A DNA stretch of 64,000 nt, taken from assembly GCA_919901855.1 (NCBI GenBank), contig CAKKQC010000007.1, positions 87,517 to 151,516 on the forward strand, read 5' to 3'. A program made the position numbers and the translations under genes. Positions 38,201-56,566 of this stretch are shown in pieces. Source of the DNA: a bacterium (lineage in GTDB: Bacteria; Oederibacteriota; CAKKQC01). The notes below the pieces were generated by a model. The model was given only the letters and a program-made list of their open reading frames with translations, was not told where the DNA came from and searched no databases. Each line of letters opens with the position of its first letter. Positions within the stretch are counted from its first letter, which is position 1.

Positions 38201-38586
38201 GGACCGTCGTGCGCCTCGCCTTCTCGCCGGACGGCCGGGCGTTCGTGACCGCCTGCGACGACGGCTGGATCAGGATCTGGCACACCGGCACCGGCGAACT
38301 GCTGGGGAAGCCGCTGCGGGCCGACGGCGCGGTCTCGGCCCTGGTCTGCGCCAGTCTGGGCGACGGCGTCGCGGTCGTCGCAGTCGACATGGAAGGAAGG
38401 ACGCGGGCGTGGGACGCCGGGTGGCTGGCCGCCGCCGAGCCGCCCGCGGAGATCACGCGCAACGCGAACCTGGCGACCTTCCGCCGTGTCGATGAACGGG
38501 GCAGTATTGTTCCGCTGGGGCCGGGCGAGTTGGAGGCACTCAAACAGGGGAGGCCGTCTTCGGCGGTCTCGAGGAGGCACAAGTGA
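35242..38586 (+). CDS. Hanks-type Ser/Thr protein kinase with single TM segment and C-terminal WD40 beta-propeller repeats (paralog 1)
   Basis: Track ORF 35173..38586 trimmed to ATG 35242 (MTNQPSGRGPHPPPDDFDG) by alignment with paralog 2. Motifs GQGAYAQVW...VAIK, HCDLKPANVLL, DFG and APE; TM NAVAAVGIACLAVAFAEIA; repeated ...FSPDG..L.T.G.DG..RLWD... Confidence 0.8.
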   Translation: MTNQPSGRGPHPPPDDFDGTLRQTDDAVGKTRDLSVPTGVEQQANAPRIAGYVLTALLGQGAYAQVWRAWQVRTRKWVAIKCFLARGGVNWMLLQREMERLIRLDKHPHIVSLLDADLTSDPAWYALDLLEAGSLDQYVDPTKLVGVDRAAKWMEEVAEALSYVHSKGIIHCDLKPANVLLDDMGHARVADFGQSKVLNESSGALGTLFYMAPEQAMISHGGAGVQPDVRWDVYALGASMYAVLTGKVPNLESLKARLTASAGLEERLNAYRELTRGAVLQSSRAVRGPVVDEDLSAIVGKCLAYDPNRRYDSMGAVLADLKARRESRPVTPLAHRRLYRVHKALRRNRVANAVAAVGIACLAVAFAEIASERDAVKSQMGLLYGERGRRMAEASDDASAFLFFARAYAICGTDVARANAASFARAFPLPLGVLEASRPVTGVCFSPDGKRVAVLEFNRTVRLWDPAAMARIGAPLAHAYSVRRMAFSPDGSRLVTAGADGVARVWDAETGAELGVILRHEDEVTEAVFGPAGSWIMTSGLDGVVSRWDAKTGKRLGTVRTGSAVLALALSPDRATFATGGADRTARLWRAGGMTPAGPPLRHRAAVAGVAFSPDGANLLAWSEDQMARLWSAGGVSRREQGGVSRIFDRPFSPDGRRLILAMDGRTLQLMDMATWRALPGVMTHSDCVNAAAFSPDGALIATASSDGTVKLWDGRTAEPTGRSLQHDGDVYAVAFSGDGRLIVSGGADLTARLWGRPEAGSHRTELALRTALTAAALSPDGSRVATGETGKVIRVLDARTGTVLWTRPVKEIPSRLALSGDGRWVGAVVGGTFVVFDAASSGPPKAMGRVDEAVPPCLSRDGGRAMTVDGGRIRLWNVATGAAAGDFGGADPVTAAELDADGVTVAYGTRGGEAGVWNSRGGKRQERATPAAGAAAGEDRRADNPVGAVALSPDGLTLVSAGADQAVRVRDAASGEETGVVVRPGGTVVRLAFSPDGRAFVTACDDGWIRIWHTGTGELLGKPLRADGAVSALVCASLGDGVAVVAVDMEGRTRAWDAGWLAAAEPPAEITRNANLATFRRVDERGSIVPLGPGELEALKQGRPSSAVSRRHK
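35260..36260. repeat. ~1 kb direct repeat (kinase-domain coding region), copy 1; partner at 41407..42400 (~88-90% nt identity)
   Basis: Long identical runs, e.g. gacttcgacggcaccctgcggcagaccgacga and catcaaatgcttcctggcgcg / catcaagtgcttcctggcgcg. Confidence 0.7.
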
Positions 38587-41381
38587 AGGGACTCAAGAGT
38601 TTTCTGGAGGATCTGGGGCGGGGCGCGGGCACTGCGGCGGCCTGGGGACTGTGGGCGGAGGCGAGCCGGGCGCTCTTCGTGCTTGTCGGGTTGGGACTGG
38701 TCGTCGCCACGGTGGACGTGTTCCTGTCCATCTTTTGGAGGTGCGTGCCGTGGGAGTATTTCCAACTGTGGTATAGGATCGCGGCTGTGACGGTGGATCC
38801 GACCCCGGAGCTCCTCGGGTTCGTCGTGATCGTGATTGCGGGAGCCTTCGCGGCCTCGCTCCTGTTCGGCGCGATCTCGCTGGTGATGGCCCGGGGCCGC
38901 GCGGAGCCGGCCGCAGGCAGAGATGCGCCTGCGGCGGGAGCCGACAGGATCGTGGCCGCTGCCCGGCCGCTCTACACCGCGCTGGGAGCGGCAGGGGCGG
39001 GGTACGTTTTCCTTTGGCAGGTCTGGGAGGATCTCAACCGGGCCAGTTGGAACTGGGAGGGGAGTTTCATCTATGTCGAGCGGTCGGCGTTTCCCCTGAG
39101 CCTGGTGCAGGCGGACCTCGTCATCCTGCTGGGGCTGGCCGTGATCCTGATCGGGCTCGCCTGGACCCTGCCGGCGCGAGTCGACCGGGTCTTTGCCCGC
39201 GAGTCCCGGGCCGGGGAATCCGGATTGTGGGTGACGGGACTCCTCCATCTGCTCCTGGCGGTTTCGCTCGTTCCGGCCGCACTGCTCGTCTGGTCCGTGG
39301 GTTTCTCCGCCAGCACGGTCCTGGGCTTCCTGGACGGACACTGGCTCAGGATGCTCCTGGTCGTGGGTTTGCTCGTGGTCCTGTTCGTCCGGATGACCGG
39401 ATGGCGGCGCAACTTCCTCTCGTTGTTTACGGCCCCCGCTGGGTCGAGACCGGCCGGCGCGACGCTGAAGACGATGCTCGTGCACATGGTGATCCTCACG
39501 GCGGCCGCGGTCGGGTGCTGGGTGCCGGTGCGCGTGTACTGGTCCCTGAAGCTCCACGGGCTCGAGGGATCCGTCCGGCAGAAGGGGCATCCCGTGAGCC
39601 TGGCGGATCTGCCCAGACCGGTGGAAGGCCGGGCGCTCACCCGGGACGAGCTGGTCAAGGTCGTGGCCGAGTTCGATCGCGAAGCCAGTACGCCGGCCGA
39701 ACAGATCAGGATGCTCCGTGAGCGTGCCAAGGGGGAGGCGCTGGACTCCTGGAGACTCAAGCTCGCCGGGGGTGCGCCGGGCGGGGCTGCCGTACCTCCG
39801 GAGGCCACTCCGGGATTCGACGACCGCGGGTGGGAGAACGTGAAGGTGGGGGACGGTCCACAGCCCCAATTGGAGGGTCGCTTCGGATGGGCGTGGTTCC
39901 GCACGACGGTCAACCTCACCCGCAAGGACCTGGACGGCGGGCTGACGAGGCTGACCTTCTGGGGTGTCGACGAGAACGCGGTCGTCTACGTGAACGGGTC
40001 GTTGGTGGGCGAGCACCGGAAGTGGGTTGAGCCGTTCCAACTGGACGGACGGAAGGTATTCCGTCCCGGTGCCAACGTGATTGCCGTGTGTGTCGAGAAC
40101 ACGCAGGGCCCGGGGGGCATCTGGAGGCCCGTCCAGGTCACGCGGGCGATCGACATGAAGGCTTGGGCTGTGGCCGGCAAGACGAAGAGTTACTGGGGGA
40201 CCGTCGAGGACATGTACCTGGCAAAGGTTGTGCTTCGGCGTCGGGACGGCGAAGCCCTGCGCCATGTCCGAGCCGCACTCGGCACGGCCGCCGGCCAGAG
40301 CCTGCAGCGCCTGGCCGGGGTTTCCGACGGGCGCGCATCTTACCGGGCATGGGACTACCCGAAGCTGGCGAAGGCGCCGTTCGACTACCGGATGGCGATC
40401 GATGCCACGTGGTACGGATACGGCACTCGCCGCACCCTCTCGGCGTTTGACCGGGCGATGGTCCTGAAGGCCGCCGTGGACGCCTCCGACGGCCGGATCG
40501 GGGCCGCGTGGGAGGACTTGCGGACGGTGGTCCGACTGGGCCGCCTGTTGGGCCAGGATCCGTTGTTCGTTTCGAAGTACGTGGAAAGGGACGCCATGCG
40601 GGCCGCGGCGGAAGGGGCCGTCACGATCCTCCTCAACAGCCCCGCGGCGGAGCTTCCCCGGGACTTGGCGCGCGATTTCGAGAACGCGGCGGCGACGGAC
40701 TTCTTCCCGGAGGCGGTCCGGGCATCCATCGCGTGGACGCTGGACGCGCATCGGTGGGAGCGCCGTGGGTGGGTACGGCCGAATCTTCCCGACAGCTACG
40801 GGGGAACAGGCAGGAGACCATCCGGGATCGCCCGGCTGGACCTGAGTCTCCGGTACCTGACGGGGGCGTGGGACGCCTCCGTGTGGTCGGCGCTCGGCGT
40901 CCTGCGCGAGTTCTCGTCCCCGGTGCCGGGCGGGGAGCTCGAGGCCAAGCGGACCGCGTTCCTGGCGCGGTCGAGGCGGGGCGGGTACTTCTGGCAGGGC
41001 GATTATGATCTCGGGAACGGGCTGTTCAAGGGTTACGTCTACATCTGCAAGCACGAATGGGTGGACAGGATGTGGTTCCAGTTGCCGCTCGTTTGCTCCG
41101 GTCTCAACCGGTACCGCGCCCAGAACGGCCGGTTTCCTGCCGCCCTCAAGGAGTTGAGTCCGCGGTTCGTCCCGGCCGTCTGTCTCAAGGACCCGTTCAC
41201 GAACGGGTGGCTGAGCTACGAGGCGAAAGGGAGCAGCTACCAGATCCTGAGCGACGGACCGGACGGGAACGGCTTCGTCTACTGGGACAGCAAGAACCAC
41301 ACCTGGCGCACAAAGGTCCTGGTCCAGTATCCGTTGCCTCCGGCGGTCAAGGGCGACATCAGGATCATGAGGGAGCAGTAG
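38583..41381 (+). CDS. Polytopic membrane protein (~8 TM) with GH2-N/galactose-binding-like jelly-roll domain and pseudopilin (GspG)-like C-terminal domain
   Basis: Track ORF, GTG overlapping the kinase stop (GTGA); GWENVKVGDGPQPQ...LTFWGVDENAVVYVNGSLVGEH...GANVIAVCVEN; C-terminus CLKDPFTNGWLSYEAKGSSYQILSDGPDGNGFVYWD. Confidence 0.65.
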   Translation: MKGLKSFLEDLGRGAGTAAAWGLWAEASRALFVLVGLGLVVATVDVFLSIFWRCVPWEYFQLWYRIAAVTVDPTPELLGFVVIVIAGAFAASLLFGAISLVMARGRAEPAAGRDAPAAGADRIVAAARPLYTALGAAGAGYVFLWQVWEDLNRASWNWEGSFIYVERSAFPLSLVQADLVILLGLAVILIGLAWTLPARVDRVFARESRAGESGLWVTGLLHLLLAVSLVPAALLVWSVGFSASTVLGFLDGHWLRMLLVVGLLVVLFVRMTGWRRNFLSLFTAPAGSRPAGATLKTMLVHMVILTAAAVGCWVPVRVYWSLKLHGLEGSVRQKGHPVSLADLPRPVEGRALTRDELVKVVAEFDREASTPAEQIRMLRERAKGEALDSWRLKLAGGAPGGAAVPPEATPGFDDRGWENVKVGDGPQPQLEGRFGWAWFRTTVNLTRKDLDGGLTRLTFWGVDENAVVYVNGSLVGEHRKWVEPFQLDGRKVFRPGANVIAVCVENTQGPGGIWRPVQVTRAIDMKAWAVAGKTKSYWGTVEDMYLAKVVLRRRDGEALRHVRAALGTAAGQSLQRLAGVSDGRASYRAWDYPKLAKAPFDYRMAIDATWYGYGTRRTLSAFDRAMVLKAAVDASDGRIGAAWEDLRTVVRLGRLLGQDPLFVSKYVERDAMRAAAEGAVTILLNSPAAELPRDLARDFENAAATDFFPEAVRASIAWTLDAHRWERRGWVRPNLPDSYGGTGRRPSGIARLDLSLRYLTGAWDASVWSALGVLREFSSPVPGGELEAKRTAFLARSRRGGYFWQGDYDLGNGLFKGYVYICKHEWVDRMWFQLPLVCSGLNRYRAQNGRFPAALKELSPRFVPAVCLKDPFTNGWLSYEAKGSSYQILSDGPDGNGFVYWDSKNHTWRTKVLVQYPLPPAVKGDIRIMREQ

Positions 41382-41388: not shown

Positions 41389-44300
41389 ATGACCGAACCC
41401 GCGACACCGCGCACGCCGCCGCCGGACGACTTCGACGGCACCCTGCGGCAGACCGACGAGGCCGTCGGGAAGACCCGGGATCTCTCCGTGCCCACCGGGG
41501 TCGAACAGCAGGCGAACGCCCCACGGATAGCCGGGTATGTCTTGACCGCCCTGCTGGGGCAGGGCGCGTACGCGCAGGTGTGGAAGGCGTGGCAGGTGCG
41601 GACGCGGAAGTGGGTGGCCATCAAGTGCTTCCTGGCGCGGGGCGGCGTGAACTGGATGCTCCTCCAGCGGGAGATGGAGCGATTGATCCGGCTGGACAAG
41701 CACCCGCACATCGTCTCCCTGCTCGATGCGGACCTGACGGCCGATCCTGCCTGGTATGCGCTCGACCTGCTGGAGGCGGGGTCGCTGGAGCAGTACGTGG
41801 ACCCGGCGAAGCTGGTGGGCGTGGACTCGGCGGCGAAGTGGATGGAGGAGATCGCGGAAGCGCTGTCGTATGTGCACACGAAGGGGATCATCCACTGCGA
41901 CCTGAAGCCGGCGAACGTGTTGTTGGACGACATGGGGCACGCGCGGGTGGCGGACTTCGGGCAGTCGAAGGTCCTGAACGAGTCGTCGGGCGCGCTGGGC
42001 ACGCTGTTCTACATGGCTCCGGAGCAGGCCATGATCTCGCAGGGCGGGGCGGGAATCCAGCCGGACGTGCGGTGGGACGTGTACGCGCTGGGCGCGAGCG
42101 CGTATGCGGTGCTGACGGGGAAGGTGCCGAACCTCGAGAGCCTGAAGGACCGGCTCACGACCAGCCCGGGGCTCGAGGACCGGCTGAGCGCGTACCGGGA
42201 GCTGACGCGGGGGGCCGTGCTCCCGTCGGCGCGGGAGGTGCGTGGCCTGGTGGTGGACGAGGACCTGTCCGCGATCGTGGGCAAGTGCCTTGCCTACGAC
42301 CCGGATGCGCGATACGACTCGATGGGAGCGGTGCTCGCGGATCTCAAGGCGCGGCGGGAGTCGCGACCGGTGACTCCGTTGGCTGCGAGTCGACGCTACC
42401 GAACGGGGAAGTTCCTGCGGCGCAACGCGATCTTGGTTGCCGTTTGCGGCATCGCGCTGGTTGCGCTCGCGGGAGCATTCAGCCAGGTCGTGCGGAAGCA
42501 GAGGCTCGCCACCCGCCAGTTGGCGGACTCCTACCTTCTGCGGGCTGAGCAGATGGCCGCGCAGGATGATGTGCCGGCCGCCGCCATCTACTCCGCGGAG
42601 GCCAACCGCATCCTGCCTTCCGCGGTGGCGCGCATGAACGGAATGGCATTCCTGAGCGAGATGGACATGCCTGTGTTCGAGGCGCGGGACGAGCACGAAC
42701 TGAAGCTGGCCGATTTCTGCGCGGATGGCGCGCAGATCGTGACCCTCTGCGACGAGGGGGAAATCAGGAGGTGGGATGCGGAGACCGGCAAGCCGGTCAG
42801 AGGCACCGTGAAGCTGGCCGGGGCCGGGCCGGGGATAGCCTTCGCCGAGATCAGCCAGGACCGGCGGACACTGCTCACCTGCGGTGATGGGGGGAAGGCC
42901 TGGGGGGGCGTCACGGTTCGGGTGTGGGATGTCGCAACCGGGAAGGCGATGGGTGAGCCCCTGAAGATGGGCCCGTTGATGACGATCGGGGGCTGGAATC
43001 TCGGCGCCATCTTCAGTCCGGACGGCGGACGCGTGCTGACTTTCGGTAACAGCGCGGTAGCCAGGCTGTGGGATGGGCGGAACCTGCGGGCGGTTGGCAA
43101 GGGCTTCGTGTGCGGCAGCACGGTGAGGGCCGCGGCGTTCAGTCCGGACGGGATGAGCGTGGCCACCGGAGGACAGGATGGGGTGCAACTCTGGAACATC
43201 AAGTCCGGCAAGGCATTGAACCTGCGGCATGGGGCGGAGGTCAGCCAGATATCCTTCAGCCGGGACGGCCGGTTGCTGGTGGTGGCGGGGGGGGCAGGCG
43301 TGCGCGTGTGGGATACCCGCACTGGTAAACAGGTCGGGCTGGAGTTCCGGCACGACAAGGATGTCAAGTTCGCGGCGCTCAGCCCGGATGGGTCGGGCCT
43401 GCTGACGGGGGGCGATGACCAGACCGGCCGGATGTGGGACGTCGGGACCGGCGAGCTCGTTCGCGGCGACCTGCGGCATCATGGGATGCTGCTCGGGGGG
43501 GAGTTCAGTCAGTACGGGACCCGTGTATTGACGGGTGCCGCCGACAACACTGCCCGGGTCTGGGGTCCCGAGCCGGGCAATCCACCCCTTCTGGTTCTAC
43601 ATCACGAGCGCCGACTCCTGGACGCCGTCTTCGGCCCGGACGGCACGAAGATCCTCACCCGGATGGAAGGCGGATCGGTGCGCATATGGGATGTGGCGCA
43701 GGCCGACCGGAAGGTGAGGACCATCCGTCCGAGCCCCTGGCTGGCGGATGTCCGGTTCAACCCGCGCCGGAACCTTATGGCCGTCGTGGACGGCTACGGA
43801 GCCATCACGCTGTTCCGGCGTGCGCGGCGCGGCTGGACCTACGTAGCGAAACACCCGTCGCTGGGCGGCATCCAGAAGGTATTCCTGGACTCGGAAGGCA
43901 AACGGGTGGTCGGCGTCGGCTGGGACAACTCCCTCGCGATCAGGGACGCCGGGAACGGGGAGATCGTCGCCCAGGTGCCTCCGGGGCCCGGAGAATGCCT
44001 GCTCGCGATGCCGAGTCCGGACGGGTTGCGGATCGTGACGGTGAGCCGTGATGCCGGGAGCGGCGATTTCGTATTCCGGGCTTTCAGAATGGAGGACGGG
44101 AAGCCCGACGGCAAACCGTTCACGGCCAAGGGCGGCGCCCCGTGGCTCGCCCTCAGCCCTGATTGCCGCAATGTCGTGCTGAAATCCGGCGACGGGAAGA
44201 CAACAAGGGTCTTCGATTTGGCGACCGGTTCTCAGGTGGGCTCTGACATGCGGCACGATTCCATTGTGCGCTACGTGCACTACGGCCAGGACGGTGAAGG

Positions 44301-46428
44301 GATTCTGGTGATCACCGAGGACGGGAAGGTCCGGCTCTGGGATCCGCGGACCGGACGGGCGGAAGGCCGGGCTTTCTCGTGCGGGCAGATCCTTGCGCTC
44401 ATCAGAGCCGAGGATGGCTGGCGAGCCCTCGAGGGCCGGCCGGGGTCCTTGCGCATCTGGGACGCAAAGCGGGGTGTGGCCGTGGGCCGGGATCTCTGGA
44501 TGCAGGGCGGGCTAACTTCGGTCTCCGCGTATCCCGGAGGAGGTAGGTTGTTGACCGGATGCAACGATGGTTCCGTCCAGCTCTGGGACCTGCGGACGGG
44601 GAGTCCGATCGGTTCCCCGGTCAGGTTTGCGAACGGCACGCGAAGCGTGGATCTGGGGAAGGACGGCACGGCTGCCGCGTTCAACTGGGTCGAGATGCGG
44701 GTCTGGAGCATCCACGATACCGACACGGCGGTGGAGCCGGATGACCTGGTCCTGCGCGCGCAGGTGATGACCCGCTGCCGGGTGGATGAGGCCGGCCGAA
44801 CGGAAGTCCTGACTCCCGCGGCGTGGCAGGCACTCTCGGCGCGTCTTTCGGCCGGGAAGCCGGCCGGGCCGGAGGGAAGCGGGACGGCGGACTGGTCGGC
44901 CGTAACGAGCCGCGCCCTTTCGGTCGGTGCCGGGCAGGTGGACCTCGCCGGAGCCTTGCGCGAACTGGGCCGGCTGATGTCCAGCGGCGCGCCGATTCTG
45001 GACGCCCTGGACGCCGTCGGCAAGAAATGCTCCGACCGGGCGCTGGCGGAAGCATTCGGCGAAGTCCGCAAGTCGCTCAGGGAGGGGATGTCGCTCGCCG
45101 GGCCCATGCGCGCCACCGGCGCTTTCCCTCCGCTCGTGATCCACCTGGTGTCCGCGGGATGCGAAATAGGCAAGCTGGACGCGATGCTGATCAAGGCGGC
45201 GGACCTGCTTCGGTCGCCGGTGGCGGGGAGCAACAGCGTTAAGGCCGAAACGGCGGCGGCCATGCGAGCGTTTGAGGCCATGACCGCCGCGGATTTGCGG
45301 ACGGGGCAATCGCTGGCGATTATAGGCGAATGGACAGCGAATACCGAGTTGCGCAAGGTCCTGTCGGGCATGGCGGACGAGCTCAACAGGAAAGTCAGCC
45401 TTCCCGCGGTTCTTGCCGCTCATGTGAACGTCTTCGGCGCCACCTGGCTCGGCAGAATCCCGCGCGGTAGCGAAGGAGACTGGAATGCGGTACTGAAAGC
45501 GCTTGCCGACTCCCTCGAGGAGGAGTTGATGAGGAGCGGAGTGGCGGGGAGCAACGCAGGAGGCTCCGTTGACGTGATGGAATGGGCGCTCAGCCGGGGC
45601 GGTGGGGGAGGGACAGCCGGCACTGGGCCGTTGCCGTTAGGCGATCTGGGGTTGGATCGGTCTGAGCAGGGCGCGATCGACCGCGCTTTGTCCGCCGGGC
45701 GGGGTCTCATCCTGTTCACGGGACCTGACGGGTCCGGCAAGACGACCACGGCCATTGCAGCCTTGGCCCGCGTCCGCGGCAAGAAGATCCACCTGGTGGG
45801 GGAGCATGTCGAGGAGTTGGAGCGTGCGGGAGCTTCCTTCCTTTCGACCGCCGGGGGTGGATTGGGATCCGCGCTCGAGTTGCTCGCGAAGAAGCCCGCA
45901 GGCGTGGTCCTCGTGGGCGACCTCGGGGATGCCTCCGAAATCCGGCTCGTCGGCAAGCTCGTTGCCGCAGGGCACCTGGTTATAGCCGTGGCCAGGGGCG
46001 ACGACTGCGCGGAGGTGGTTGCGCGGTTTGCCGGGCTCGTGGACCCGGCCACGGGGAAGCCGGTCGATGCCAAGGCGTTTTCCGACGCGCTCTCGCTGGT
46101 CGTTTCCCAGCGCCTGCTCCGCCGGGTATGCCGCGCCTGCGCGATACCCGCGGGGGACGGGACTGGCGAGTTCGCGGGCGTCTCCCTCATGAAGGGCGCG
46201 GGATGCCCGGCGTGCGGCAATTCGGGGTTCAAGGGCCGGGTCGCATCCTTCGAGCTTCTCCCGGCCACGGCGGCGGTCCGCGCCGCGGTGGCGAAGCGGG
46301 CCCGGGTGGAAGTCATCCGGAGTCTTGCGCTCAAGGAGGGCCTGATCCCGATGCGTCAGGCGGCGGTCGCGCAAGTTAAGGCCGGGCTGACGACGCCAGA
46401 TGAGTTCAGGAAGGGAGGGTTCCGCTAG
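41389..46428 (+). CDS. Ser/Thr kinase, TM, WD40 propeller, GspF-like cytoplasmic domain and GspE/PilB-like ATPase domain fusion (paralog 2, 1679 aa)
   Basis: Track ORF. N-terminal 330 aa ~90% identical to paralog 1; TM AILVAVCGIALVALAGAF; WD40 repeats; GMSLAGPMRATGAFPPLVIHLVSAGCEIGKLDAMLIKAADLL (T2SSF-like); LILFTGPDGSGKTTT (Walker A); VVLVGDLGD where GspE has VGEIRD; CRACAIP...GCPACGNSGFKGRVASFELL tetracysteine motif. Confidence 0.8.
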   Translation: MTEPATPRTPPPDDFDGTLRQTDEAVGKTRDLSVPTGVEQQANAPRIAGYVLTALLGQGAYAQVWKAWQVRTRKWVAIKCFLARGGVNWMLLQREMERLIRLDKHPHIVSLLDADLTADPAWYALDLLEAGSLEQYVDPAKLVGVDSAAKWMEEIAEALSYVHTKGIIHCDLKPANVLLDDMGHARVADFGQSKVLNESSGALGTLFYMAPEQAMISQGGAGIQPDVRWDVYALGASAYAVLTGKVPNLESLKDRLTTSPGLEDRLSAYRELTRGAVLPSAREVRGLVVDEDLSAIVGKCLAYDPDARYDSMGAVLADLKARRESRPVTPLAASRRYRTGKFLRRNAILVAVCGIALVALAGAFSQVVRKQRLATRQLADSYLLRAEQMAAQDDVPAAAIYSAEANRILPSAVARMNGMAFLSEMDMPVFEARDEHELKLADFCADGAQIVTLCDEGEIRRWDAETGKPVRGTVKLAGAGPGIAFAEISQDRRTLLTCGDGGKAWGGVTVRVWDVATGKAMGEPLKMGPLMTIGGWNLGAIFSPDGGRVLTFGNSAVARLWDGRNLRAVGKGFVCGSTVRAAAFSPDGMSVATGGQDGVQLWNIKSGKALNLRHGAEVSQISFSRDGRLLVVAGGAGVRVWDTRTGKQVGLEFRHDKDVKFAALSPDGSGLLTGGDDQTGRMWDVGTGELVRGDLRHHGMLLGGEFSQYGTRVLTGAADNTARVWGPEPGNPPLLVLHHERRLLDAVFGPDGTKILTRMEGGSVRIWDVAQADRKVRTIRPSPWLADVRFNPRRNLMAVVDGYGAITLFRRARRGWTYVAKHPSLGGIQKVFLDSEGKRVVGVGWDNSLAIRDAGNGEIVAQVPPGPGECLLAMPSPDGLRIVTVSRDAGSGDFVFRAFRMEDGKPDGKPFTAKGGAPWLALSPDCRNVVLKSGDGKTTRVFDLATGSQVGSDMRHDSIVRYVHYGQDGEGILVITEDGKVRLWDPRTGRAEGRAFSCGQILALIRAEDGWRALEGRPGSLRIWDAKRGVAVGRDLWMQGGLTSVSAYPGGGRLLTGCNDGSVQLWDLRTGSPIGSPVRFANGTRSVDLGKDGTAAAFNWVEMRVWSIHDTDTAVEPDDLVLRAQVMTRCRVDEAGRTEVLTPAAWQALSARLSAGKPAGPEGSGTADWSAVTSRALSVGAGQVDLAGALRELGRLMSSGAPILDALDAVGKKCSDRALAEAFGEVRKSLREGMSLAGPMRATGAFPPLVIHLVSAGCEIGKLDAMLIKAADLLRSPVAGSNSVKAETAAAMRAFEAMTAADLRTGQSLAIIGEWTANTELRKVLSGMADELNRKVSLPAVLAAHVNVFGATWLGRIPRGSEGDWNAVLKALADSLEEELMRSGVAGSNAGGSVDVMEWALSRGGGGGTAGTGPLPLGDLGLDRSEQGAIDRALSAGRGLILFTGPDGSGKTTTAIAALARVRGKKIHLVGEHVEELERAGASFLSTAGGGLGSALELLAKKPAGVVLVGDLGDASEIRLVGKLVAAGHLVIAVARGDDCAEVVARFAGLVDPATGKPVDAKAFSDALSLVVSQRLLRRVCRACAIPAGDGTGEFAGVSLMKGAGCPACGNSGFKGRVASFELLPATAAVRAAVAKRARVEVIRSLALKEGLIPMRQAAVAQVKAGLTTPDEFRKGGFR
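41407..42400. repeat. Direct repeat copy 2 of the kinase-domain coding region
   Basis: See copy 1. Confidence 0.7.
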
Positions 46429-46483
46429 ATATGCCAAGTGAAACGCACAACCCGCGCCGATCCGCAGCAGGAAAAGTGAAGCC

Positions 46484-48172
46484 ATGAGCTGGTTCATCGA
46501 GGCGCGGCCGAAGGGCGGAACGCCTGTAAGGCTCGAGATCATGCCCGGGAAGCCGGTAGTGATCGGCCGGTCCGACCAGGCGGACATGAAGGTTGCGGGC
46601 GACGGGTTCCTGAGCAGGCGGCATGTGGAGGTCAAGCTAGACGGGAAGCGGCTCGCGGTTCGCCGGCTCGAAGGCGCGTCGAACCCGGTCCTCTTCCGTG
46701 GCCAGGAGTCGGCGGAGTTCGCGATGGGGACCAACGACTGGTTCGCGATCGGGGAGACCCGGTTCGTCCTGCTCGGCGGCGAGGGAATGGTGCCGATCAA
46801 GACCGAAACGGACGACGCCCCCGCGGTCCAGCACACGATGAGCGAGGCCGACCTCTACGCGATGGGGGGGCGGGCGGACCGCATGCGGCTCCTGGACCTC
46901 GTCGAGCTGCCCGAGATGCTGAGGTCGATGAAGCGTGAGGAGTTCTTCGTGCACCTCGCCGGGATGATCCGGCTGGCCACCGACGCCCGATGGGCGGCGG
47001 TGGCGAACGAGAACGGCGAGGTGATCGCCCGGGACTGCATCGAGGACGCGCCGGCGGAATGGCGGATGAGCCGGTCCGTGATCAAGGCGGCCTTGCGCGA
47101 CGCGCCGCGGCCGACGCTGTGCGTCTGGGGCGGGACCGCCGGGTTCGAGGCGACGGTGCAGGAGGGGACCGACTGGGCGATCTGCGCCGCGATGAAGGTT
47201 CCGGGCGGCGCCCCGCTCGTGCTCTATGCCGCGGGCGAGGGGGGGGAGGAAGCCGCGCGCCGGCACGAGGAGAACTCGCGGTTCATTGGCCTCGTCGCGG
47301 ACATGGTGGGGCGCAGCCTCTCGGTCCACCGGCTGGAGTCGTGGCAGGGGCGCCTCGAGCACTACTTCTCCGGGCCCGTCATCTCCAAGATCCTGGAGTC
47401 CAGCGATCCCAAGGGGCTGGAGCCCCGGATCTCGCCGGCGACGATCATGTTCTTCGACATCCGCGGGTTCTCGAAGCGCACGGAGGGGCAGAACGAGCGC
47501 ATCCTGTCCTACCTGGGGGAGCTCCGCCGGATCATGACCGCGATGACCGAGGAGATCTTCAACGAGGGCGGCAACGTGCTCCAGTATCTGGGCGACGGCA
47601 TCATGGCGTGCTGGAACGTCCCGATCGAGGTGCCGAACCACGTGGACGGGGCGGTCCGCGCCGCGATGCGGATGGCCACGCGCCTTGGGGAAATGACCGA
47701 CGGCTGGAAGTGCGGGATCGGGCTGCACACGGGCGACGTCGTGGCGGGGTCGCTGGGGTCGGACCTCATGTTCTCGTACGGGGTCATGGGCGCGGTCGTG
47801 AACCAGTCGTCCCGGGTGGAGGGGATCACGAAGCACGTCGAGACCCCGATCCTGGTGACGAAGGAGATCGCGGAAAAGCTCTCGCCGGCGGTGGCGTTGA
47901 CCAGGCGGATCGGCCGGTTCCAGCCTGCGGGCATGCACGTCGCGCTCGATCTCTACGAGCCCCTGCCGCCCGACGCCGAGCGCGAGCCGCTCGCCGTCTA
48001 CGCGAAGGGCCTCGAGATCTTCGAGCGGGGCGACTGGGAGGAAGCCTACAAGGTCCTCGACCAGCTCGGCCACGAGGACCGGCCGGCGCGGTTCATCAAG
48101 GCGCTGGCCGAGAGCTACCGGCGCCATCCCCCCAAGGGCTGGCAGGGCATCATCGAGTTGAGCGAGAAGTAG
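46484..48172 (+). CDS. FHA-domain-containing class III adenylate/guanylate cyclase
   Basis: Track ORF; N-terminal FHA (PVVIGRSDQADMKVAGDGFLSRRHVEVK...NPVLFRG); C-terminal cyclase homology domain (MFFDIRGFSKRTEG...YLGDGIMACWN...GLHTGDVVAGSLGS). Confidence 0.8.
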   Translation: MSWFIEARPKGGTPVRLEIMPGKPVVIGRSDQADMKVAGDGFLSRRHVEVKLDGKRLAVRRLEGASNPVLFRGQESAEFAMGTNDWFAIGETRFVLLGGEGMVPIKTETDDAPAVQHTMSEADLYAMGGRADRMRLLDLVELPEMLRSMKREEFFVHLAGMIRLATDARWAAVANENGEVIARDCIEDAPAEWRMSRSVIKAALRDAPRPTLCVWGGTAGFEATVQEGTDWAICAAMKVPGGAPLVLYAAGEGGEEAARRHEENSRFIGLVADMVGRSLSVHRLESWQGRLEHYFSGPVISKILESSDPKGLEPRISPATIMFFDIRGFSKRTEGQNERILSYLGELRRIMTAMTEEIFNEGGNVLQYLGDGIMACWNVPIEVPNHVDGAVRAAMRMATRLGEMTDGWKCGIGLHTGDVVAGSLGSDLMFSYGVMGAVVNQSSRVEGITKHVETPILVTKEIAEKLSPAVALTRRIGRFQPAGMHVALDLYEPLPPDAEREPLAVYAKGLEIFERGDWEEAYKVLDQLGHEDRPARFIKALAESYRRHPPKGWQGIIELSEK

Positions 48173-48183
48173 GCTCTCGGGCG

Positions 48184-48555
48184 CTACGGGCGGGGAAGGC
48201 GCCGGGGGAGGCGGGTGATCAATTGCCGCGCGATCTCCTCGTCGACGGCGAGGTCCGAGGTTTCCTCGGAGAGGTAGCCGGTCACCTCGGCGCGGATCCC
48301 GTCGAAAAGCCGGGCCGCGGGTGTGTCCGCTCTCGCGGCGCGACCCTGGGAAAGCTCGTGGCTCACGATCCGGACCCGCTTGGCCAGCTCCCGGACGCAG
48401 AGGTCGTGGACGGCCGCGATCAGTTCCTGCGGCGTCGCTCCGGTCCGTCCGTGCCGGGTTAGCAGGAGCACGAGCGCCCGGCGGAACCGCGCCCGGCGCT
48501 GGTTCAGCAGGCGGTCAATCCTGACGCGGATCGCGGTCGGGGAGATCGGGGGCAT
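48184..48555 (-). CDS. Hypothetical small protein (possible DNA-binding)
   Basis: Track ORF 48184..48657 trimmed to internal Met (MPPISPTAIRVRIDRLL). Overlaps the upstream gene's stop by ~40 nt; weak call. Confidence 0.4.
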   Translation of the reverse strand: MPPISPTAIRVRIDRLLNQRRARFRRALVLLLTRHGRTGATPQELIAAVHDLCVRELAKRVRIVSHELSQGRAARADTPAARLFDGIRAEVTGYLSEETSDLAVDEEIARQLITRLPRRLPRP

Positions 48556-49021
48556 TCTTCGGGTCCTCCGGCTTCGATGATCCTCCCGGGGGCTTCGGGG
48601 GGGATGTGACGTCCGACACCGGGGTCGAGGCGACCCTGGCGGCATCCTCGGCCGCATCCACTTCCCGGTCGTGCCGGCGCGCCATCTCTTCCTCGCCGAG
48701 TTCCTCGGCCATGATCTGCTCGAGCGACTGCCAGCGCGCGCCGGTCAGGGAGGCGCGCTGGCTGAACTGGAGGTCCTTCCAGACCTGATTCGCGTATTCA
48801 TGCCCGGCCATGGCTCCGGCCCGCCAGCCGAACCAGGCGACCGGGAGCAGCAGGATGATCGTCCAGCGCGTGGGGTTCTCGGTCATCCCGGGGAGGAACA
48901 GCCAGATGATCTCCCGGCCGATCAGGACCGCCATGGCGGTGCAGATGAGGATGGCGAACCAGCGCTTGCGCCTGGCCTCCCGGAACCGGGCCCGGAAGGC
49001 CTCCGGCGAGGTGTCGTCCAT
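48515..49021 (-). CDS. Hypothetical membrane protein (2 TM) with low-complexity C-terminal tail
   Basis: Track ORF; WFAILICTAMAVLIGREIIWLFLPGM and WTIILLLPVAWFGWRAGAMAG. Confidence 0.5.
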   Translation of the reverse strand: MDDTSPEAFRARFREARRKRWFAILICTAMAVLIGREIIWLFLPGMTENPTRWTIILLLPVAWFGWRAGAMAGHEYANQVWKDLQFSQRASLTGARWQSLEQIMAEELGEEEMARRHDREVDAAEDAARVASTPVSDVTSPPKPPGGSSKPEDPKNAPDLPDRDPRQD

Positions 49022-49045
49022 GTCCGTATCTTATCCGAGAGTACA

Positions 49046-50080
49046 ATGATTCCGATGAAAGCCGCCATGCTCACCGGGCCCCGCCGGATCGCCGTGCTCG
49101 AGGTGCCTGTCCCGCGTCCGAAACGGGGGGAAGCGCTCGTGCGGGTGCGGGCGGTGGGCATCTGCCGGTCAGACCTCCACTACTACCTTCACGGCCGGAT
49201 CGGGAGCCAGGTGGTGGAGTCGTACCCGCAGGCGCTCGGCCACGAGCCCGCGGGGGAAGTGGCGGCGCTGGGACCGGGGGTCCGGGGACTCCGGGTCGGC
49301 GACCGGGTAGCCGTCGAGCCCGCGGTCCCCTGCGGGAAGTGCGCGATGTGCCGGGCGGGGCGCGGGAACATCTGCGCGAAGGTCCGGTTTCTCGGGATGC
49401 CGGGTCTGCCCGGGGCCTTCTGCGAATACCTGGCTTGGCCGGCCGCGAGTCTCGCCAGGATCCCGGCGTCGGTGTCGTTCGCCGAGGCCGCCGCCCTCGA
49501 GCCGTTCGCCATCGGCGTCCACGCGGTTTCGCTCTTCGGATCGCGTCGAATCCGCACGGCCGCCGTCGTAGGGTGCGGCCCGGTCGGGGTCTCGGTGGTC
49601 GCCGCGCTGACATTCCGGCGCGCGGCGGTGACGGCCTGCGACTACGTTCCGGCGCGGCTCCGCGTCGCCCGGCGAATGGGCGCCGGTCGCACCATTCGGA
49701 TCGATCCGCGACGTCCCATGGGGCTTCAGGCGGCCGCGCTGGGGGCTCCCGAAGTCGTCGTCGAGGCCGGCGGCACCACCGAGTCGCTCGATCTCGCGAT
49801 CCGGGTCATCAGGGCCGGCGGGACGATCGCGGTAATCGGGATCATGGACGAGGACCTGACCCCCGTGGACCTGCACGTGGCGCGGCGCAAGGAGCTCGTG
49901 ATCCTGAACGTGCGCCGGTCGAACGGCGAGCTGCCCGCGTGCATCCGCCTGCTGGCGTCCCGCCGCGTCGATCTGCGTCCCATGGTGACCCACCAGGGGG
50001 GGCTTTCTGACGCGGCCCGGCTCTTCCGGCTCGCGGCCGGCCGCTCGGGCGGCGTCGTCAAAGCGCTCATCCTGCCGTAA
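49046..50080 (+). CDS. Zn-dependent medium-chain dehydrogenase/reductase (threonine/sorbitol-dehydrogenase-like)
   Basis: Part of track ORF 48671..50080 from ATG 49046 (MIPMKAAMLTGPRRIAVLEV); GICRSDLHYY, GHEPAGEV and CGKCAMCRAGRGNIC zinc sites. Confidence 0.8.
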   Translation: MIPMKAAMLTGPRRIAVLEVPVPRPKRGEALVRVRAVGICRSDLHYYLHGRIGSQVVESYPQALGHEPAGEVAALGPGVRGLRVGDRVAVEPAVPCGKCAMCRAGRGNICAKVRFLGMPGLPGAFCEYLAWPAASLARIPASVSFAEAAALEPFAIGVHAVSLFGSRRIRTAAVVGCGPVGVSVVAALTFRRAAVTACDYVPARLRVARRMGAGRTIRIDPRRPMGLQAAALGAPEVVVEAGGTTESLDLAIRVIRAGGTIAVIGIMDEDLTPVDLHVARRKELVILNVRRSNGELPACIRLLASRRVDLRPMVTHQGGLSDAARLFRLAAGRSGGVVKALILP

Positions 50081-50092
50081 GCGCCACCCGTA

Positions 50093-52000
50093 ATGCTGCT
50101 GCCCGACGATACGATCCCCTCGCTCTACCGCCGCATCGCCCGCGGATTCGGCGAGACCTTCTGGGACGAGGGCGCGCGGCTGCTCCGGGACCCCGGCCGG
50201 CCGGGGAAGCACCTGACCCGGGATTCCCTGTACTTCGCCCGGGTCCTCCTGGACCTGCGCGACGAGGTGCAGTCGGCGCGGGCGGCCGGGATCGTCGACG
50301 CCGTCCTCGACACGCAGGTGACGCGGGAGGGGAGCGAGCACTGCGGCAACTTCCCGTGGGGGGCCGAGGACGGGGAGGCGGGCACCTGGGACCCGAACTG
50401 GGCGTGCTTCAACGCCGCGACCCTGCTGGAGCTGCTCGTCTGGCACCGGACCCGGCTGCCCGACGCGACCGTGGCGCGCGCCGAGCGCGCGCTGGCCCTG
50501 TGCGCGGAACACGATCTGGCCCGGTGGGTCGCCCCCGCGTACACGAACATCGCCCTGCTCAGCTCCCTCTGCCTGGCCGGCGCCGGGGAGGTCCTGCGGA
50601 ACCGCGATTTCGCGGAGGCGGGCCGGGAGAAGCTTCGCGAGACCGACGCCTGCGTCGCCACGACCGGGGCGTTCGACGAGTACAACTCGCCGACGTATAC
50701 GGCCGTCAACCTGCGGGCGCTGGCCGGGATCCTCGCGTTCGTCAAGGACGGGGAGGTCCTCGGCGTGGCGGAGAAGCTCCGGCGGTTCCAGTGGGAGGAG
50801 CTCCTCGATCGCGTCCACCTGCCGACCGGCCAGTTGGCCGGCCCGCACGGCCGCGCGTACGGCCGGGACATGCTCCGCGACACGCGGGGCCACGTGAAAT
50901 GGTATCTCTTCCGCGCGCTCGGGGAGGCCTTTCCGGTCGGGGTCGAGGCGGACGCCACGCCGTCGGACCTCTTCCCGGGCCTGATCCTGCTCGATCCCGA
51001 CTGCCCGGAAGACCTGCTGCACGCGTGGCGGAGGCGCCGTCTGCCGCGCTCCGTGTCGATGATCACGGACTCGTGCTCGCGGTCGGTGCCCCTCCCCGAA
51101 TCCCGCCGGTTCCCGCCGCTGTGGCGGTCGCGCGCCGGGCGCGAGGCGTGGAAAACCCTCGTCGAGAGCAAGGGGGCGCCGGGCACGCCGGGGTTCCTGG
51201 GCCAGGTCCAGTGCGCGACTACGCACCTCGCCGGGCTCTGGTGCCTCGGGAGCGCGAGCGCGGAGGCGCTCGGCGACCAGGCCCAGCCGCTCATCGCGCA
51301 CTGGGCGAACGCGGACCGGCCCGACCGCGGGAACTCGTTCGCGGCCCTGGCACTCCGCGAGCACGGGGGCAAGCTCGAGCGGTTCGGCGGCGCGGTCCTG
51401 TGCTGCGCGCAGCACGGCGGCCGGGTGCTCGGCCTGCTGCGGTTCGGACTGGACCCCGAAGACCGCTCCGCCCCGTCGGCGGCGCGCGCAGTGCTCGCGT
51501 TCCAGGTCAACGCGGACGCGAACCCCGAAGTGGTTGTACACGGAGGCTCCCGGGCCATGCCTCTGGCTCCGCCGCCCGACGTGGACGAGACCGTGCCCCT
51601 GCACCGGGGCATCGTCTTCAAGTCGAACGGCGTCCTTTGCGGCGTGCGCGTACTCCAGGCCCGCGTCCCGGGCGCGAAGGTCAGCTCCGCGCTCCGCGAC
51701 CTCGCCGCGCCGGGGGCGGGTGCCGAGGGCGAGACCGGCGCGCACCTGATCCTCGAGCCGGTCGAGCTCGCGCTCGGGGCGGAGGCCTACGTCGCGTTCG
51801 CGGTCGAGGTCTGCGAGGAGACCAGGAGCGGGGGGCTCGCCGGGCTGGCGGGCCGGCTCCTGGCGGCCCGGGTGGACGCGGATCGGAGTGCGGACGGGCG
51901 CGTCCGGCTCGCGTGGGGCTCGCAGTTGACGCTGGAAACGTCGGTCAGGGTCCTGGACATCAAGGGCTGGCTCGACCCCGAGGGGGCCGTGCTCACGTGA
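50093..52000 (+). CDS. Hypothetical protein (alpha-helical, unknown family)
   Basis: Track ORF, realistic composition; stop overlaps the next gene's GTG start. Confidence 0.55.
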   Translation: MLLPDDTIPSLYRRIARGFGETFWDEGARLLRDPGRPGKHLTRDSLYFARVLLDLRDEVQSARAAGIVDAVLDTQVTREGSEHCGNFPWGAEDGEAGTWDPNWACFNAATLLELLVWHRTRLPDATVARAERALALCAEHDLARWVAPAYTNIALLSSLCLAGAGEVLRNRDFAEAGREKLRETDACVATTGAFDEYNSPTYTAVNLRALAGILAFVKDGEVLGVAEKLRRFQWEELLDRVHLPTGQLAGPHGRAYGRDMLRDTRGHVKWYLFRALGEAFPVGVEADATPSDLFPGLILLDPDCPEDLLHAWRRRRLPRSVSMITDSCSRSVPLPESRRFPPLWRSRAGREAWKTLVESKGAPGTPGFLGQVQCATTHLAGLWCLGSASAEALGDQAQPLIAHWANADRPDRGNSFAALALREHGGKLERFGGAVLCCAQHGGRVLGLLRFGLDPEDRSAPSAARAVLAFQVNADANPEVVVHGGSRAMPLAPPPDVDETVPLHRGIVFKSNGVLCGVRVLQARVPGAKVSSALRDLAAPGAGAEGETGAHLILEPVELALGAEAYVAFAVEVCEETRSGGLAGLAGRLLAARVDADRSADGRVRLAWGSQLTLETSVRVLDIKGWLDPEGAVLT

Positions 52001-53046
52001 ACCTGCACGACCTCGAGACGCCGTGCGCGATCGTGGACCTCGACCGGCTGGAGGCGAACATCGAGAACCTTCAGGCGTACCTCGGGGGCCACGGCATCGC
52101 GAACCGGCCGCATATGAAGACCCACAAAGTCCCCGAGATCGCGCGGATGCAGATGAAGGCGGGGGCGATCGGGACCACGTGCCAGAAACTCGGGGAGGCC
52201 GAGGTCATGGCCGACGGCGGGATCGAGGACATCTTCCTGCCCTACAACCTGCTGGGGGCGGCCAAGCTCGACCGGCTCGTGAGGCTCGCGCGGCGGGTCA
52301 GGATGAGCGTCACGGCCGATTCGGCCGTCGTGGTAGAGGGTCTCTCCGCCGCGATCGCCAAGGCTGGGCTGACGCTCCCGGTCCTCGTCGAGTTCGACAC
52401 CGGGATCGGCCGGTGCGGGGTGCAGACTCCCGGGGAGGCGCGGGAACTCGCCCGGACGATCGCGGCGTCCCCGGGGCTCGTCTTCGCCGGGCTGATGACC
52501 TATCCGCACAACGAGCAGACCGTGCCCTTCGTCGAGGAGACGACGGCCCTGCTCGGGCGGGACGGGATCAAGCCCGGGATCGTGAGCCTCGGGGGGACGT
52601 CGGGCATGAAACAGGCGCACACGCGCAAGGGGGTGACCGAGTACCGGGCCGGGATGTACGCCTTCGGCGACCGGTCGTCCATCGCGTCGGGCGCGACCAC
52701 GCTGGCGAACAGCGCGCTCACGATCCTGACGACGGTCGTCTCGCGGCCGACGCCGGATCGGGGCATCCTCGACGCGGGGAGCAAGACGATCTCGTCGGAC
52801 CTCCTCGGCCTCACCGGTCACGGGCACGTGGTCGAGTACCCGGAGGCGACGATCGGGAAGCTGACCGAGGAGCACGGCCACGGCGACTTCGGGCCGTGCG
52901 CGCGGAAACCGAAGATCGGGGAACGGGTACGGGTGATCCCGAACCACTGCTGCCAGATCGCCAACCTGCTGGGGACCCTCTACGGGGTGCGGGGCGAGGA
53001 GGTCCGGATCGTCTGGCCGGTCCTGGCCAGAGGAAAAGTTCAGTAG
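51997..53046 (+). CDS. PLP-dependent DSD1-family enzyme (D-serine deaminase / D-threonine aldolase-like, alanine-racemase N-terminal fold)
   Basis: 3' part of track ORF 50356..53046 from GTG 51997 (VNLHDLETPCAIVDLDRLEANI); RPHMKTHK Lys motif. Confidence 0.7.
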   Translation: MNLHDLETPCAIVDLDRLEANIENLQAYLGGHGIANRPHMKTHKVPEIARMQMKAGAIGTTCQKLGEAEVMADGGIEDIFLPYNLLGAAKLDRLVRLARRVRMSVTADSAVVVEGLSAAIAKAGLTLPVLVEFDTGIGRCGVQTPGEARELARTIAASPGLVFAGLMTYPHNEQTVPFVEETTALLGRDGIKPGIVSLGGTSGMKQAHTRKGVTEYRAGMYAFGDRSSIASGATTLANSALTILTTVVSRPTPDRGILDAGSKTISSDLLGLTGHGHVVEYPEATIGKLTEEHGHGDFGPCARKPKIGERVRVIPNHCCQIANLLGTLYGVRGEEVRIVWPVLARGKVQ

Positions 53047-53053
53047 CTTACCC

Positions 53054-53090
53054 GACGCAGGTGGCCCCTTCCCAAGGGGTCACCTGCGTC
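53054..53090. terminator. Hairpin (15-bp stem with one mismatch, 7-nt loop) between convergent genes
   Basis: gacgcaggtggcccc-ttcccaa-ggggtcacctgcgtc. Confidence 0.4.
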
Positions 53091-56557: not shown

Positions 56558-56566
56558 TGGAGGTAC

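Follow-up and report, generated by a model that had tools for sequence, protein, structure and literature searches.

What happens to a pilus motor when it is joined to a receptor kinase, and on which side of the membrane does it then lie? The question is raised by a 64,000-nucleotide (nt) stretch of bacterial DNA (lineage Oederibacteriota, CAKKQC01; assembly GCA_919901855.1, contig CAKKQC010000007.1, positions 87,517 to 151,516), referred to below as the window, in which one open reading frame (ORF) on the + strand at 41389-46428 encodes a fusion protein of 1679 amino acids (aa). The ORF list, its translation and matches to Pfam and NCBIfam give the domain order as a kinase, a transmembrane (TM) helix, a WD40 array, two GspF-like domains and a GspE-like C-terminal domain. 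GspE/PilB and GspF/PilC are regarded as obligate cytoplasmic partners in which ATP hydrolysis drives the assembly of a pilus or pseudopilus. An earlier note on the 3' end of this ORF, which forms a C-terminal extension after ~660 aa of WD40 sequence, had proposed a possible pseudo-ATPase placed, paradoxically, outside the cytoplasm. Our analysis suggests that the C-terminal 490 residues are a captured, membrane-free motor-platform pair from a type IV pilus- or type II secretion-like machine, and that this pair acts, with a probability that we put at roughly 0.5, as a binding or clustering module without catalytic activity, carried on a receptor kinase's sensor arm that is predicted to be extracytoplasmic. 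The feature, which is unusual, is real and well supported by sequence, and its occurrence is limited to a single groundwater lineage that has been little sampled.

Domain order of the fusion protein

All features of the fusion protein are on the + strand. The protein begins with a Hanks-type Ser/Thr kinase domain (41539-42318, aa 51-310; Pfam Pkinase E=6e-40) whose catalytic motifs are complete, with the G-loop at aa 57, VAIK at aa 76, HCD at aa 169, DFG at aa 189 and APE at aa 210. A single TM helix follows (42427-42492, aa 347-368, AILVAVCGIALVALAGAFSQVV; mean Kyte-Doolittle hydropathy 2.5), and then a WD40 beta-propeller array (42706-44688, approximately aa 440-1100) that is matched by multiple WD40/beta-propeller Pfam families and aligns with the WD40 part of a paralog encoded upstream at 35173-38586. 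The paralog, a kinase-TM-WD40 protein of 1137 aa by Pfam and BLASTP, has no extension. Its BLASTP alignment with the fusion protein ends at aa 1149 of the latter and at aa 1123 of its own 1137, and from this end we delimit a family-end tail and low-complexity linker at 44689-44952; a Pfam scan gave no match for aa 1098-1204. The paralog stops inside the equivalent tail, so everything further downstream in the fusion protein is an add-on, separated from the tail by a junction of ~35 aa of low-complexity sequence.

The add-on has two parts, only one of which is related to GspE. Where the earlier note had assigned the whole of 44930-46428 to a GspE-like ATPase, the assignment stands for 45637-46425 (aa 1417-1679) and there for the C-terminal ATPase domain only; 44953-45528 encodes GspF/PilC-type domains instead, a half that had gone unrecognised although Pfam finds T2SSF domains in it (E=4e-18, the second weak). 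The GspE/PilB-type part matches Pfam T2SSE (E=5e-26, aa 1417-1672) over profile positions 121-367 of 370, and a phmmer search against all PDB sequences returned Thermus thermophilus PilF (5it5, E=2e-25) together with Geobacter and Myxococcus PilB, Vibrio GspE and PilT. An AlphaFold model calculated from a 70-sequence alignment gives the ATPase domain a predicted local distance difference test (pLDDT) score of 90-98, and Foldseek superposes it on PilB (5tsh), PilF and GspE at 2-3 A over ~275 columns. As the alignment was built from PilB homologues, the model confirms the fold and is not independent of the sequence evidence; it is confident for the ATPase domain only and so makes no statement on the docking of the GspF-like and GspE-like parts. 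A single-sequence AlphaFold model was uninformative (pLDDT 41).

The first GspF-like domain (44953-45252, aa 1189-1288; PF00482 E=4e-18, profile positions 1-102 of 125) is similar to the second of the two cytoplasmic domains in GspF/PilC. It is 50% identical to that domain of a GspF encoded on contig L006, which is described below, and 38% identical to that of PilC P0080. The second (45277-45528, aa 1297-1380) is a weak match, with PF00482 E=0.043 when scanned alone, and is counted as a second stretch when scanned in a longer query; it resembles the first cytoplasmic domain of GspF/PilC and is 29% identical to that of the L006 GspF (pairwise E=4e-7). Neither is followed by a TM helix, as no hydrophobic Kyte-Doolittle window above 1.5 occurs past aa 368, and a Gly-rich linker joins the second domain to the ATPase-like domain. 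A search for repeats revealed that the two places where helices would be expected from comparison with the L006 GspF are marked by exact, direct copies of a 15-nt sequence, GTGGCGGGGAGCAAC, each encoding VAGSN. Copy 1 (45220-45234) lies where TM3 would follow in GspF, and copy 2 (45541-45555) lies where TM1 would follow and opens the Gly-rich linker. The sequence flanking the copies is not otherwise repeated, and by a rough estimate chance would produce an exact 15-mer repeat within 1.8 kb in well under one of a hundred such stretches.

A metagenome source and a kinase domain that is a repeat, 87% identical at the nucleotide level to the upstream paralog and the only place where short-read contigs break, raise the concern that the fusion is an artefact, either a chimeric contig or separate genes merged by frameshifts. 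Two other assemblies make this highly improbable. A Logan contig (L014, run ERR3858135) is 100% identical to the window over 42261-61455, spanning the TM helix, the WD40 array, both GspF-like domains, the ATPase domain, all junctions between them and ~15 kb downstream. An ENA contig from Hainich groundwater well H43 (L005) matches 45731-51292, and so most of the ATPase domain and the downstream genes, with 4 mismatches, all of them downstream of the fusion ORF. The repeat lies upstream of the TM helix, clear of the junctions of the WD40 array with the GspF-like domains and of these with the ATPase domain, both of which L014 spans, and a misassembly at either is ruled out. All domains are in one frame, and third-position GC is 0.74-0.96, a coding level, across the whole ORF with its linkers included. 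The two contigs also carry the same residues as the window across the motifs discussed below, so the substitutions there are not sequencing errors, and no canonical residues emerge from the comparison.

Loss of catalytic residues in a clade of short GspE relatives

Two motifs of the ATPase-like domain are intact in the translation and in the alignments, as the earlier note had read them. These are the Walker A motif GPDGSGKT (45721-45744, aa 1445-1452), with its Lys-Thr, and the tetracysteine zinc motif (Cys4; 46129-46215), made up of CRAC (46129-46140, aa 1581-1584) and CPAC (46204-46215, aa 1606-1609), which is invariant in the domain alignment. The remaining motifs depart from the family, and alignment to GspE, PilB and PilT, the check that had been proposed, identifies the catalytic Glu, the second His, Thr411 and the RQDPD segment as lost. 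In the Walker B region (45913-45930, aa 1509-1514) VGEIRD reads VGDLGD, a change of the catalytic Glu to Asp1511 and of the next Arg to Gly that the other assemblies confirm. In the Asp-box (45796-45816) VGEHVEE stands for IEDPVE; its first Glu is lost and the Mg-coordinating Glu is kept, and downstream LRxxLRQDPD reads LELLAKKPAG, without the Arg and Asp residues. The His box (45970-46005, aa 1528-1539) reads GHLVIAVARGDD in place of TGHLV..TLHTND, likewise as had been noticed.

The functional residues of Geobacter metallireducens PilB (PilB_Gm) have been defined by McCallum et al. (PMC5424180), and we placed them on the PilF/PilB alignment, in which the residue offsets match exactly. E357, the Asp-box Glu that binds Mg, is kept as E1475 and H413, the first His, is kept as H1529. 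Walker A T327 is replaced by D1447, the catalytic E395 by D1511, T411, which precedes the His box, by A1527, and H420, the second His, which contacts the gamma-phosphate, by R1536. The arginine fingers R271 and R286 are absent with the whole N2 domain that carries them. In the hexamer, N2 contributes the two arginine fingers and one half of each packing unit between subunits, N2(n)-CTD(n+1) (PMC5424180), where CTD is the C-terminal domain. Both N1 and N2 are absent from the fusion protein, in which the 36 residues upstream of the T2SSE match are the Gly-rich linker that follows the T2SSF domain; thus the arginine fingers and the canonical subunit-packing unit are both missing. The losses are unevenly reflected in conservation. 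Mean pairwise identity in the RecA core is 0.30 between the window domain and canonical proteins, as against 0.59 among canonical proteins, whereas in the zinc-binding and C-terminal subdomain the corresponding values are 0.35 and 0.38. Core identity is halved and that of the zinc and C-terminal subdomain is normal, which indicates that the catalytic core has been released from constraint, which still acts on the zinc site and the C-terminal helices.

Relatives of the module show when these losses arose. Architecture searches used the C-terminal 532 aa of the fusion protein as query, and no other protein with the fusion architecture was found either by a word-indexed search of 5.8 billion protein clusters, in which the best 8000 candidates (those sharing most words) were scored, or by an exhaustive phmmer search of 1.84 billion cluster representatives. 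The first returned ordinary PilB/GspE at ~30% identity and the fragment P0001; the second returned tandem T2SSE-T2SSE proteins of ~1000 aa, canonical PilB, P0122 with P0257, P0001, and P0127. The ~1000-aa proteins, which are numerous (P0121, P0123, P0124, P0129, P0132, P0135), came out as top matches and could be mistaken for fusions of GspE with GspF; this is ruled out, as they are tandem T2SSE-T2SSE proteins in which two hits inflate the score. GTDB genomes and JGI metagenomes held only canonical PilB or the same sequence and no orthologous architecture, and exact look-ups found no record of the full fusion protein.

P0122 is the closest stand-alone relative. It is a rare protein of 264 aa, a GspE C-terminal domain and nothing else (a "mini-E"), and it is 42% identical to the window domain, which reaches at most ~35% identity to canonical proteins; P0257 is a fragmentary relative of it. 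Its Walker A motif (AGIGGSGKAN) has lost the Ser/Thr (GGSGKA), its Asp-box region reads IAGEDVA, its Walker B region (ILVDGLQN) has no acidic residue at the catalytic position, and its His box is AGHLVLGTMDTPD. It keeps the Cys4 motif and has, in common with the window domain, a PAGDG insert after the first CxxC. Its conservation is as uneven as that of the window domain, with 0.28 identity to canonical proteins in the RecA core and 0.40 in the zinc and C-terminal subdomain. A neighbour-joining tree of 68 C-terminal domains places the window domain, P0122 and P0257 in an exclusive clade, and the window domain has the features of this clade, being a C-terminal domain only and lacking E395, H420, T411 and RQDPD. 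On contigs L006-L009 the mini-E gene starts ~200 nt after a gene for a CsgG/LpoB-like lipoprotein, encodes no signal peptide, and is followed by the gene of a GspF of 302 aa, which has two T2SSF domains along with three TM helices. The locus of the mini-E/GspF pair is L006:474-3687 (GCA_023265785.1; also L007-L009), with a gene for a signal-peptide protein downstream of the pair, and the pair may represent a minimal secretion or pilus-like system with a dead ATPase.

Taken with the 50% and 29% identities of the GspF-like domains to this GspF, the exclusive clade indicates, at the level of sequence, that the window module descends from a mini-E and short GspF gene pair. As P0122 shares the losses, the catalytic residues were already gone before the fusion, and their absence is a property of the mini-E clade. 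Without a signal peptide and beside a membrane GspF, P0122 is evidently cytoplasmic, which does not support a reading of the degeneracy as a result of export, or as an explanation for it, as the earlier note might be taken to imply.

These observations strengthen the pseudo-ATPase proposal well beyond the two substitutions on which it had first been made, as N2 with its arginine fingers, the Asp-box Arg and Asp residues and Thr411 are also lost and the core is only ~30% identical to canonical proteins. We consider the domain very probably a pseudo-ATPase. Core decay, the missing N2 and the degenerate Walker A of the sister P0122 together argue that it almost certainly does not work as a PilB-type motor and would lack ATPase activity. 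With the Lys-Thr of its P-loop and the Mg-binding Glu both kept, it may still bind nucleotide or phosphate. The same residues, together with a preserved Walker B strand and its Gly, could instead belong to an active but slow ATPase in which Asp1511 and Arg1536 take the place of Glu and His and in which, for example, the GspF-like domains replace N2. Asp and Arg are chemically close to the Glu and His that they replace, so that some residual activity is conceivable, which counts against a purely non-catalytic reading. An active enzyme is nonetheless improbable, given that the arginine fingers are gone with the whole N2 domain, that P0122 lacks both the Walker A Ser/Thr and an acidic catalytic residue, that the catalytic core stands at half its normal conservation, and that the domain, if exported, would have no ATP to use. 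Three defining features of the family (catalytic Glu, second His and N2) fail here and the GspF part has no TM helices, and we accordingly describe the module as a pseudo-enzyme derivative.

Two further relatives bear on how the fusion arose. P0001 (contig L001) is 86% identical to the window over the last 78 aa. Over 88 codons the synonymous rate (dS) between them is 0.28 and the nonsynonymous rate (dN) 0.078; the resulting dN/dS of 0.28 over the last 88 codons indicates purifying selection, as an average over two lineages in one of which the domain may be cytoplasmic. On L001 (33-1325; ENA ERZ27247974) the ORF of the GspE-like domain has no stop and continues without a change of frame into the coding sequence of a PilM_2-like protein, for which a separate ribosome-binding site and ATG are present; the next gene is a kinase-WD40 paralog. 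The contig has 65 nt upstream of the gene call, and the first ~30 of these do not match the window and include an in-frame stop. This arrangement indicates that pilus-type cytoplasmic parts and the kinase family are genomically linked in this lineage and that their arrangement is fluid. P0127 (1047 aa, L010:8001-11144, GCA_964384625.1), encoded immediately downstream of an ECF sigma/anti-sigma pair, consists of a pair of T2SSF domains without TM helices and, C-terminal to them, two complete T2SSE units whose motifs are canonical. Soluble fusions of GspF with GspE thus exist elsewhere, and since the GspF domains of P0127 are only 34% identical to those of the window, the TM helices were lost independently.

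The fusion might be a recent accident, a stop loss or deletion that joined a kinase-WD40 gene to a soluble gene for the GspF-GspE module, in which case the module would be misplaced and functionless and its topology biologically meaningless. We regard this as unlikely, even though several observations speak for it: the architecture is unique in both large searches, in GTDB genomes and in JGI metagenomes; the paralog stops where the extension begins, at a low-complexity junction; the L001 ORF has also lost its stop and reads into PilM, so that read-through fusions do occur in the lineage; and synteny downstream of the GspE-like domain differs between the window and L001 despite a dS of only ~0.28. 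Precise removal of three GspF TM helices, on the other hand, leaves a clean soluble module, which a simple stop loss would not be expected to do, and coding-level third-position GC through the linkers and the dN/dS of 0.28 on the shared tail, with the same caveat that it averages two lineages, one perhaps cytoplasmic, also argue against a functionless appendage.

Predicted topology and proposed role of the module

The earlier note had one TM helix, between kinase and WD40 array, at 42420-42480; a sole helix in this place is confirmed, at 42427-42492. A Kyte-Doolittle scan of the whole protein found no second TM helix, and the highest-scoring 19-residue window elsewhere reaches 1.5 and belongs to a beta-strand of the ATPase core. 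The kinase motifs are intact and require cytoplasmic ATP, so the kinase should be cytoplasmic. The 15 residues before the helix contain 6, 7 and 5 Lys plus Arg in three paralogs, as compared with 4, 2 and 4 in the 15 residues after it (6 versus 4 in the fusion protein). In distant relatives of the kinase family (Planctomycetota, Phycisphaerae, Elusimicrobiota and others, by database name) the TM helix is followed by WD40, FGE-sulfatase or dCache_1 domains. dCache_1 is an extracytoplasmic sensor fold. The charge bias favours an N-in/C-out arrangement, with which the dCache_1 and FGE precedents in the family agree. In a DeepTMHMM survey of Planctomycetota kinases, Pkinase domains are always cytoplasmic and WD40 and TPR arrays are mostly periplasmic (PMC11032199). 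The topology paradox stands as a prediction on these four grounds, namely the single helix, the charge bias, the domains of the relatives and the survey, and on charge bias and family precedent we lean slightly towards a location of the GspF-GspE module outside the cytoplasm.

Several points weigh against an extracytoplasmic module of this kind. On its far side the TM helix of the fusion protein is flanked by residues with a net charge of +3. All GspE/PilB proteins and GspF cytoplasmic domains characterised so far function, to our knowledge, in the cytoplasm; the nearest stand-alone relative lacks a signal peptide; and on L001 the same domain runs into a PilM-like protein, which is a cytoplasmic protein of the actin fold. 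In a periplasm that is oxidising and free of ATP, it is not evident what a P-loop and a Cys4 zinc site would be for. Finally, the architecture is found in one lineage only, so the fusion could be recent and without selective value.

Much of this would be accommodated if the module were cytoplasmic and docked the kinase onto a type IV pilus-like machine, its mini-E and soluble GspF domains binding PilM, PilB or PilC partners that the kinase would then phosphorylate. All known homologues are cytoplasmic; the stand-alone mini-E, without a signal peptide, adjoins a membrane GspF; L001 has the GspE-like domain, then PilM_2 in frame, then a kinase-WD40 paralog; P0127 is a wholly cytoplasmic fusion of TM-less GspF domains with GspE units; the P-loop and Cys4 site are retained; and the far-side flank of the helix is positively charged. 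Such a location requires, however, that the helix is not N-in/C-out, that the module is made from an internal start, or that it is released by cleavage. The helix is a textbook TM segment of 22 apolar residues with a Kyte-Doolittle value of 2.5, a kinase with intact motifs needs cytoplasmic ATP, and there is no second helix to bring the chain back. A scan of the sequence found no convincing internal start or ribosome-binding site anywhere before the module. Neither a canonical pilus or secretion gene nor PilM was found in the scanned ORFs of the window, a set without the giant one at 3-10604, and tblastn found no PilM in the window. On balance we judge a cytoplasmic docking module doubtful. 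The earlier note had posed the matter as a choice between a scaffold and an unusual topology; the two are compatible with each other, and there is a third possibility, a recent accidental fusion.

If the module does lie outside, the neighbouring genes suggest how it might be used. The fusion gene is third in an operon of four co-directional, tightly spaced genes on the + strand, of which the first (35173-38586) encodes the kinase-TM-WD40 paralog. The second (38583-41381) starts in an overlap with the upstream stop, ends 8 nt before the fusion gene, and encodes a 932-aa protein that has six TM helices near its N-terminus and, after them, a large C-terminal domain, for which the only match is a weak one to GH2_N, a sugar-binding family. 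The fourth (46484-48172) encodes a protein without a TM helix that combines an FHA-like domain with a class III nucleotidyl cyclase (Guanylate_cyc E=1e-13; Yop-YscD_cpl, of FHA-type fold, E=7e-4), and for which exact look-ups likewise found no record. An FHA domain near Ser/Thr kinases is the classical reader of phospho-Thr, and the FHA-cyclase is likely to be a phospho-Thr-dependent output of the kinases. The cyclase also matches the Pycsar model PycC (E=2e-20), which we take as generic cyclase homology; an anti-phage reading was set aside, as PADLOC gave only generic kinase and cyclase matches. The kinase domains of the two tandem genes (35173-38586 and 41389-42400) are 92% identical in aa and 87% in nt sequence and the WD40 arrays are strongly diverged, which suggests gene conversion or a recent duplication with sensor diversification.

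We propose that the two GspF-like domains and the GspE-like domain form a non-enzymatic binding or oligomerisation part of the sensor arm of a receptor Ser/Thr kinase, and that a single N-in TM helix would put this arm outside the cytoplasm. Clustering of the WD40 array and the module, driven by a ligand or a partner, would activate the cytoplasmic kinase; phospho-Thr sites made by the kinase would recruit the FHA-cyclase encoded next door; and recruitment would change cyclic-nucleotide output. In its full form, with an exported motor-platform pair, stripped of catalysis and membrane helices, acting as a periplasmic ligand-binding or clustering element of a kinase that signals through the FHA-cyclase, the scheme is possible and is offered tentatively.

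The mini-E clade has kept fold, zinc site and C-terminal surface and lost the catalytic core, which indicates that pilus motors can become pseudo-enzymes, and attachment to a receptor kinase suggests that the one described here takes part in signalling and not in mechanical work. Should the module truly be periplasmic, it would break an assumed compartment rule and would be the first extracytoplasmic use of both folds. Should it be cytoplasmic, it would suggest that a Ser/Thr kinase directly controls a pilus-like platform and that cyclic nucleotides are the output. In both cases the module is a defined construct with which binding partners of the non-catalytic PilB and PilC surfaces can be sought.

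The wider window and comparison with known systems

Elsewhere in the window, downstream of the operon, a small PilZ-domain ORF (56567-57010) is followed by a reverse transcriptase (RVT_1, 57043-58695 by the Logan gene call) and a 234-aa ORF without matches. A diversity-generating retroelement is not obvious at RVT_1, as there is no template/variable repeat pair nearby. A 62-nt direct repeat, in two copies 79% identical and 123 nt apart, occupies 54075-54259 within two overlapping candidate ORFs (52023-55034 on the + strand and 53928-55487 on the - strand) and is likely to reflect a repeated low-complexity peptide segment. Towards the start of the window lie the giant ORF (more than 3533 aa, 3-10604, - strand), which runs off the window start, and a 1892-aa protein (14650-20328, + strand) with DUF7507, CARDB and Big_1 domains and, at its C-terminus, FlgD_ig. 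A further protein, of 318 aa (21767-22723), has FlgD_ig at its end as well, and this domain may be a sorting tag.

Kinase-TM-WD40 receptors and PilB/PilC are themselves well known, and the literature searched contains no description of a kinase-WD40-T2SSF-T2SSE protein or of a degenerate PilB reduced to its C-terminal domain. With the Planctomycetota-type kinase-TM-WD40/TPR receptors (PMC11032199) the fusion protein shares a Hanks kinase, one TM helix, a long C-terminal WD40 array, and a lineage-specific expansion of paralogs, here two tandem copies; in these receptors, too, the kinase is predicted inside and the WD40 array in the periplasm. T2SSE, T2SSF, PilM, PF00437 and PF00482 are absent from two supplementary files of that survey, which should include its domain and architecture tables, and as far as these two files go the GspF-GspE extension is new for this class of kinase (PMC11032199).

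The module itself can be set beside four systems. P0127 resembles it in having TM-less GspF domains N-terminal to GspE-type ATPase domains, and differs in its full N2 and C-terminal ATPase units, with VGEIRD and TGH..LHTN, and in having no TM helix, kinase or WD40 array. The GspF/PilC platform (PF00482) has the same two homologous T2SSF helical-bundle domains; in the window its three TM helices are missing, the second-like domain precedes the first-like one, and the second copy is strongly diverged. Closest is the mini-E and GspF pair (P0122/P0257, L006-L009), which shares the form reduced to the C-terminal domain, the same losses, the PAGDG insert and the most similar GspF. In that pair the GspE-like protein and GspF come from separate genes, E first, GspF keeps its three TM helices, no kinase or WD40 array is attached, and the Walker A motif is also degenerate, unlike the intact GPDGSGKT of the window. 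With PilB, GspE and PilF (PilT-like ASCE ATPases; 5tsh, 5it5, 1p9r) the window domain shares the C-terminal RecA-like fold (E=2e-25, 2-3 A), the Walker A motif, an atypical Walker B strand ending in Gly, the Mg-binding Asp-box Glu, the first His of the His box, the Cys4 zinc motif of the PilB/GspE clade and the C-terminal helices. It differs from them in lacking N1 (MshEN) and N2, and hence the arginine fingers and packing unit, in the changes of Glu to Asp, second His to Arg and Thr to Ala and the loss of LRQDPD, in being fused to other domains, and in its predicted place on the opposite side of the membrane.

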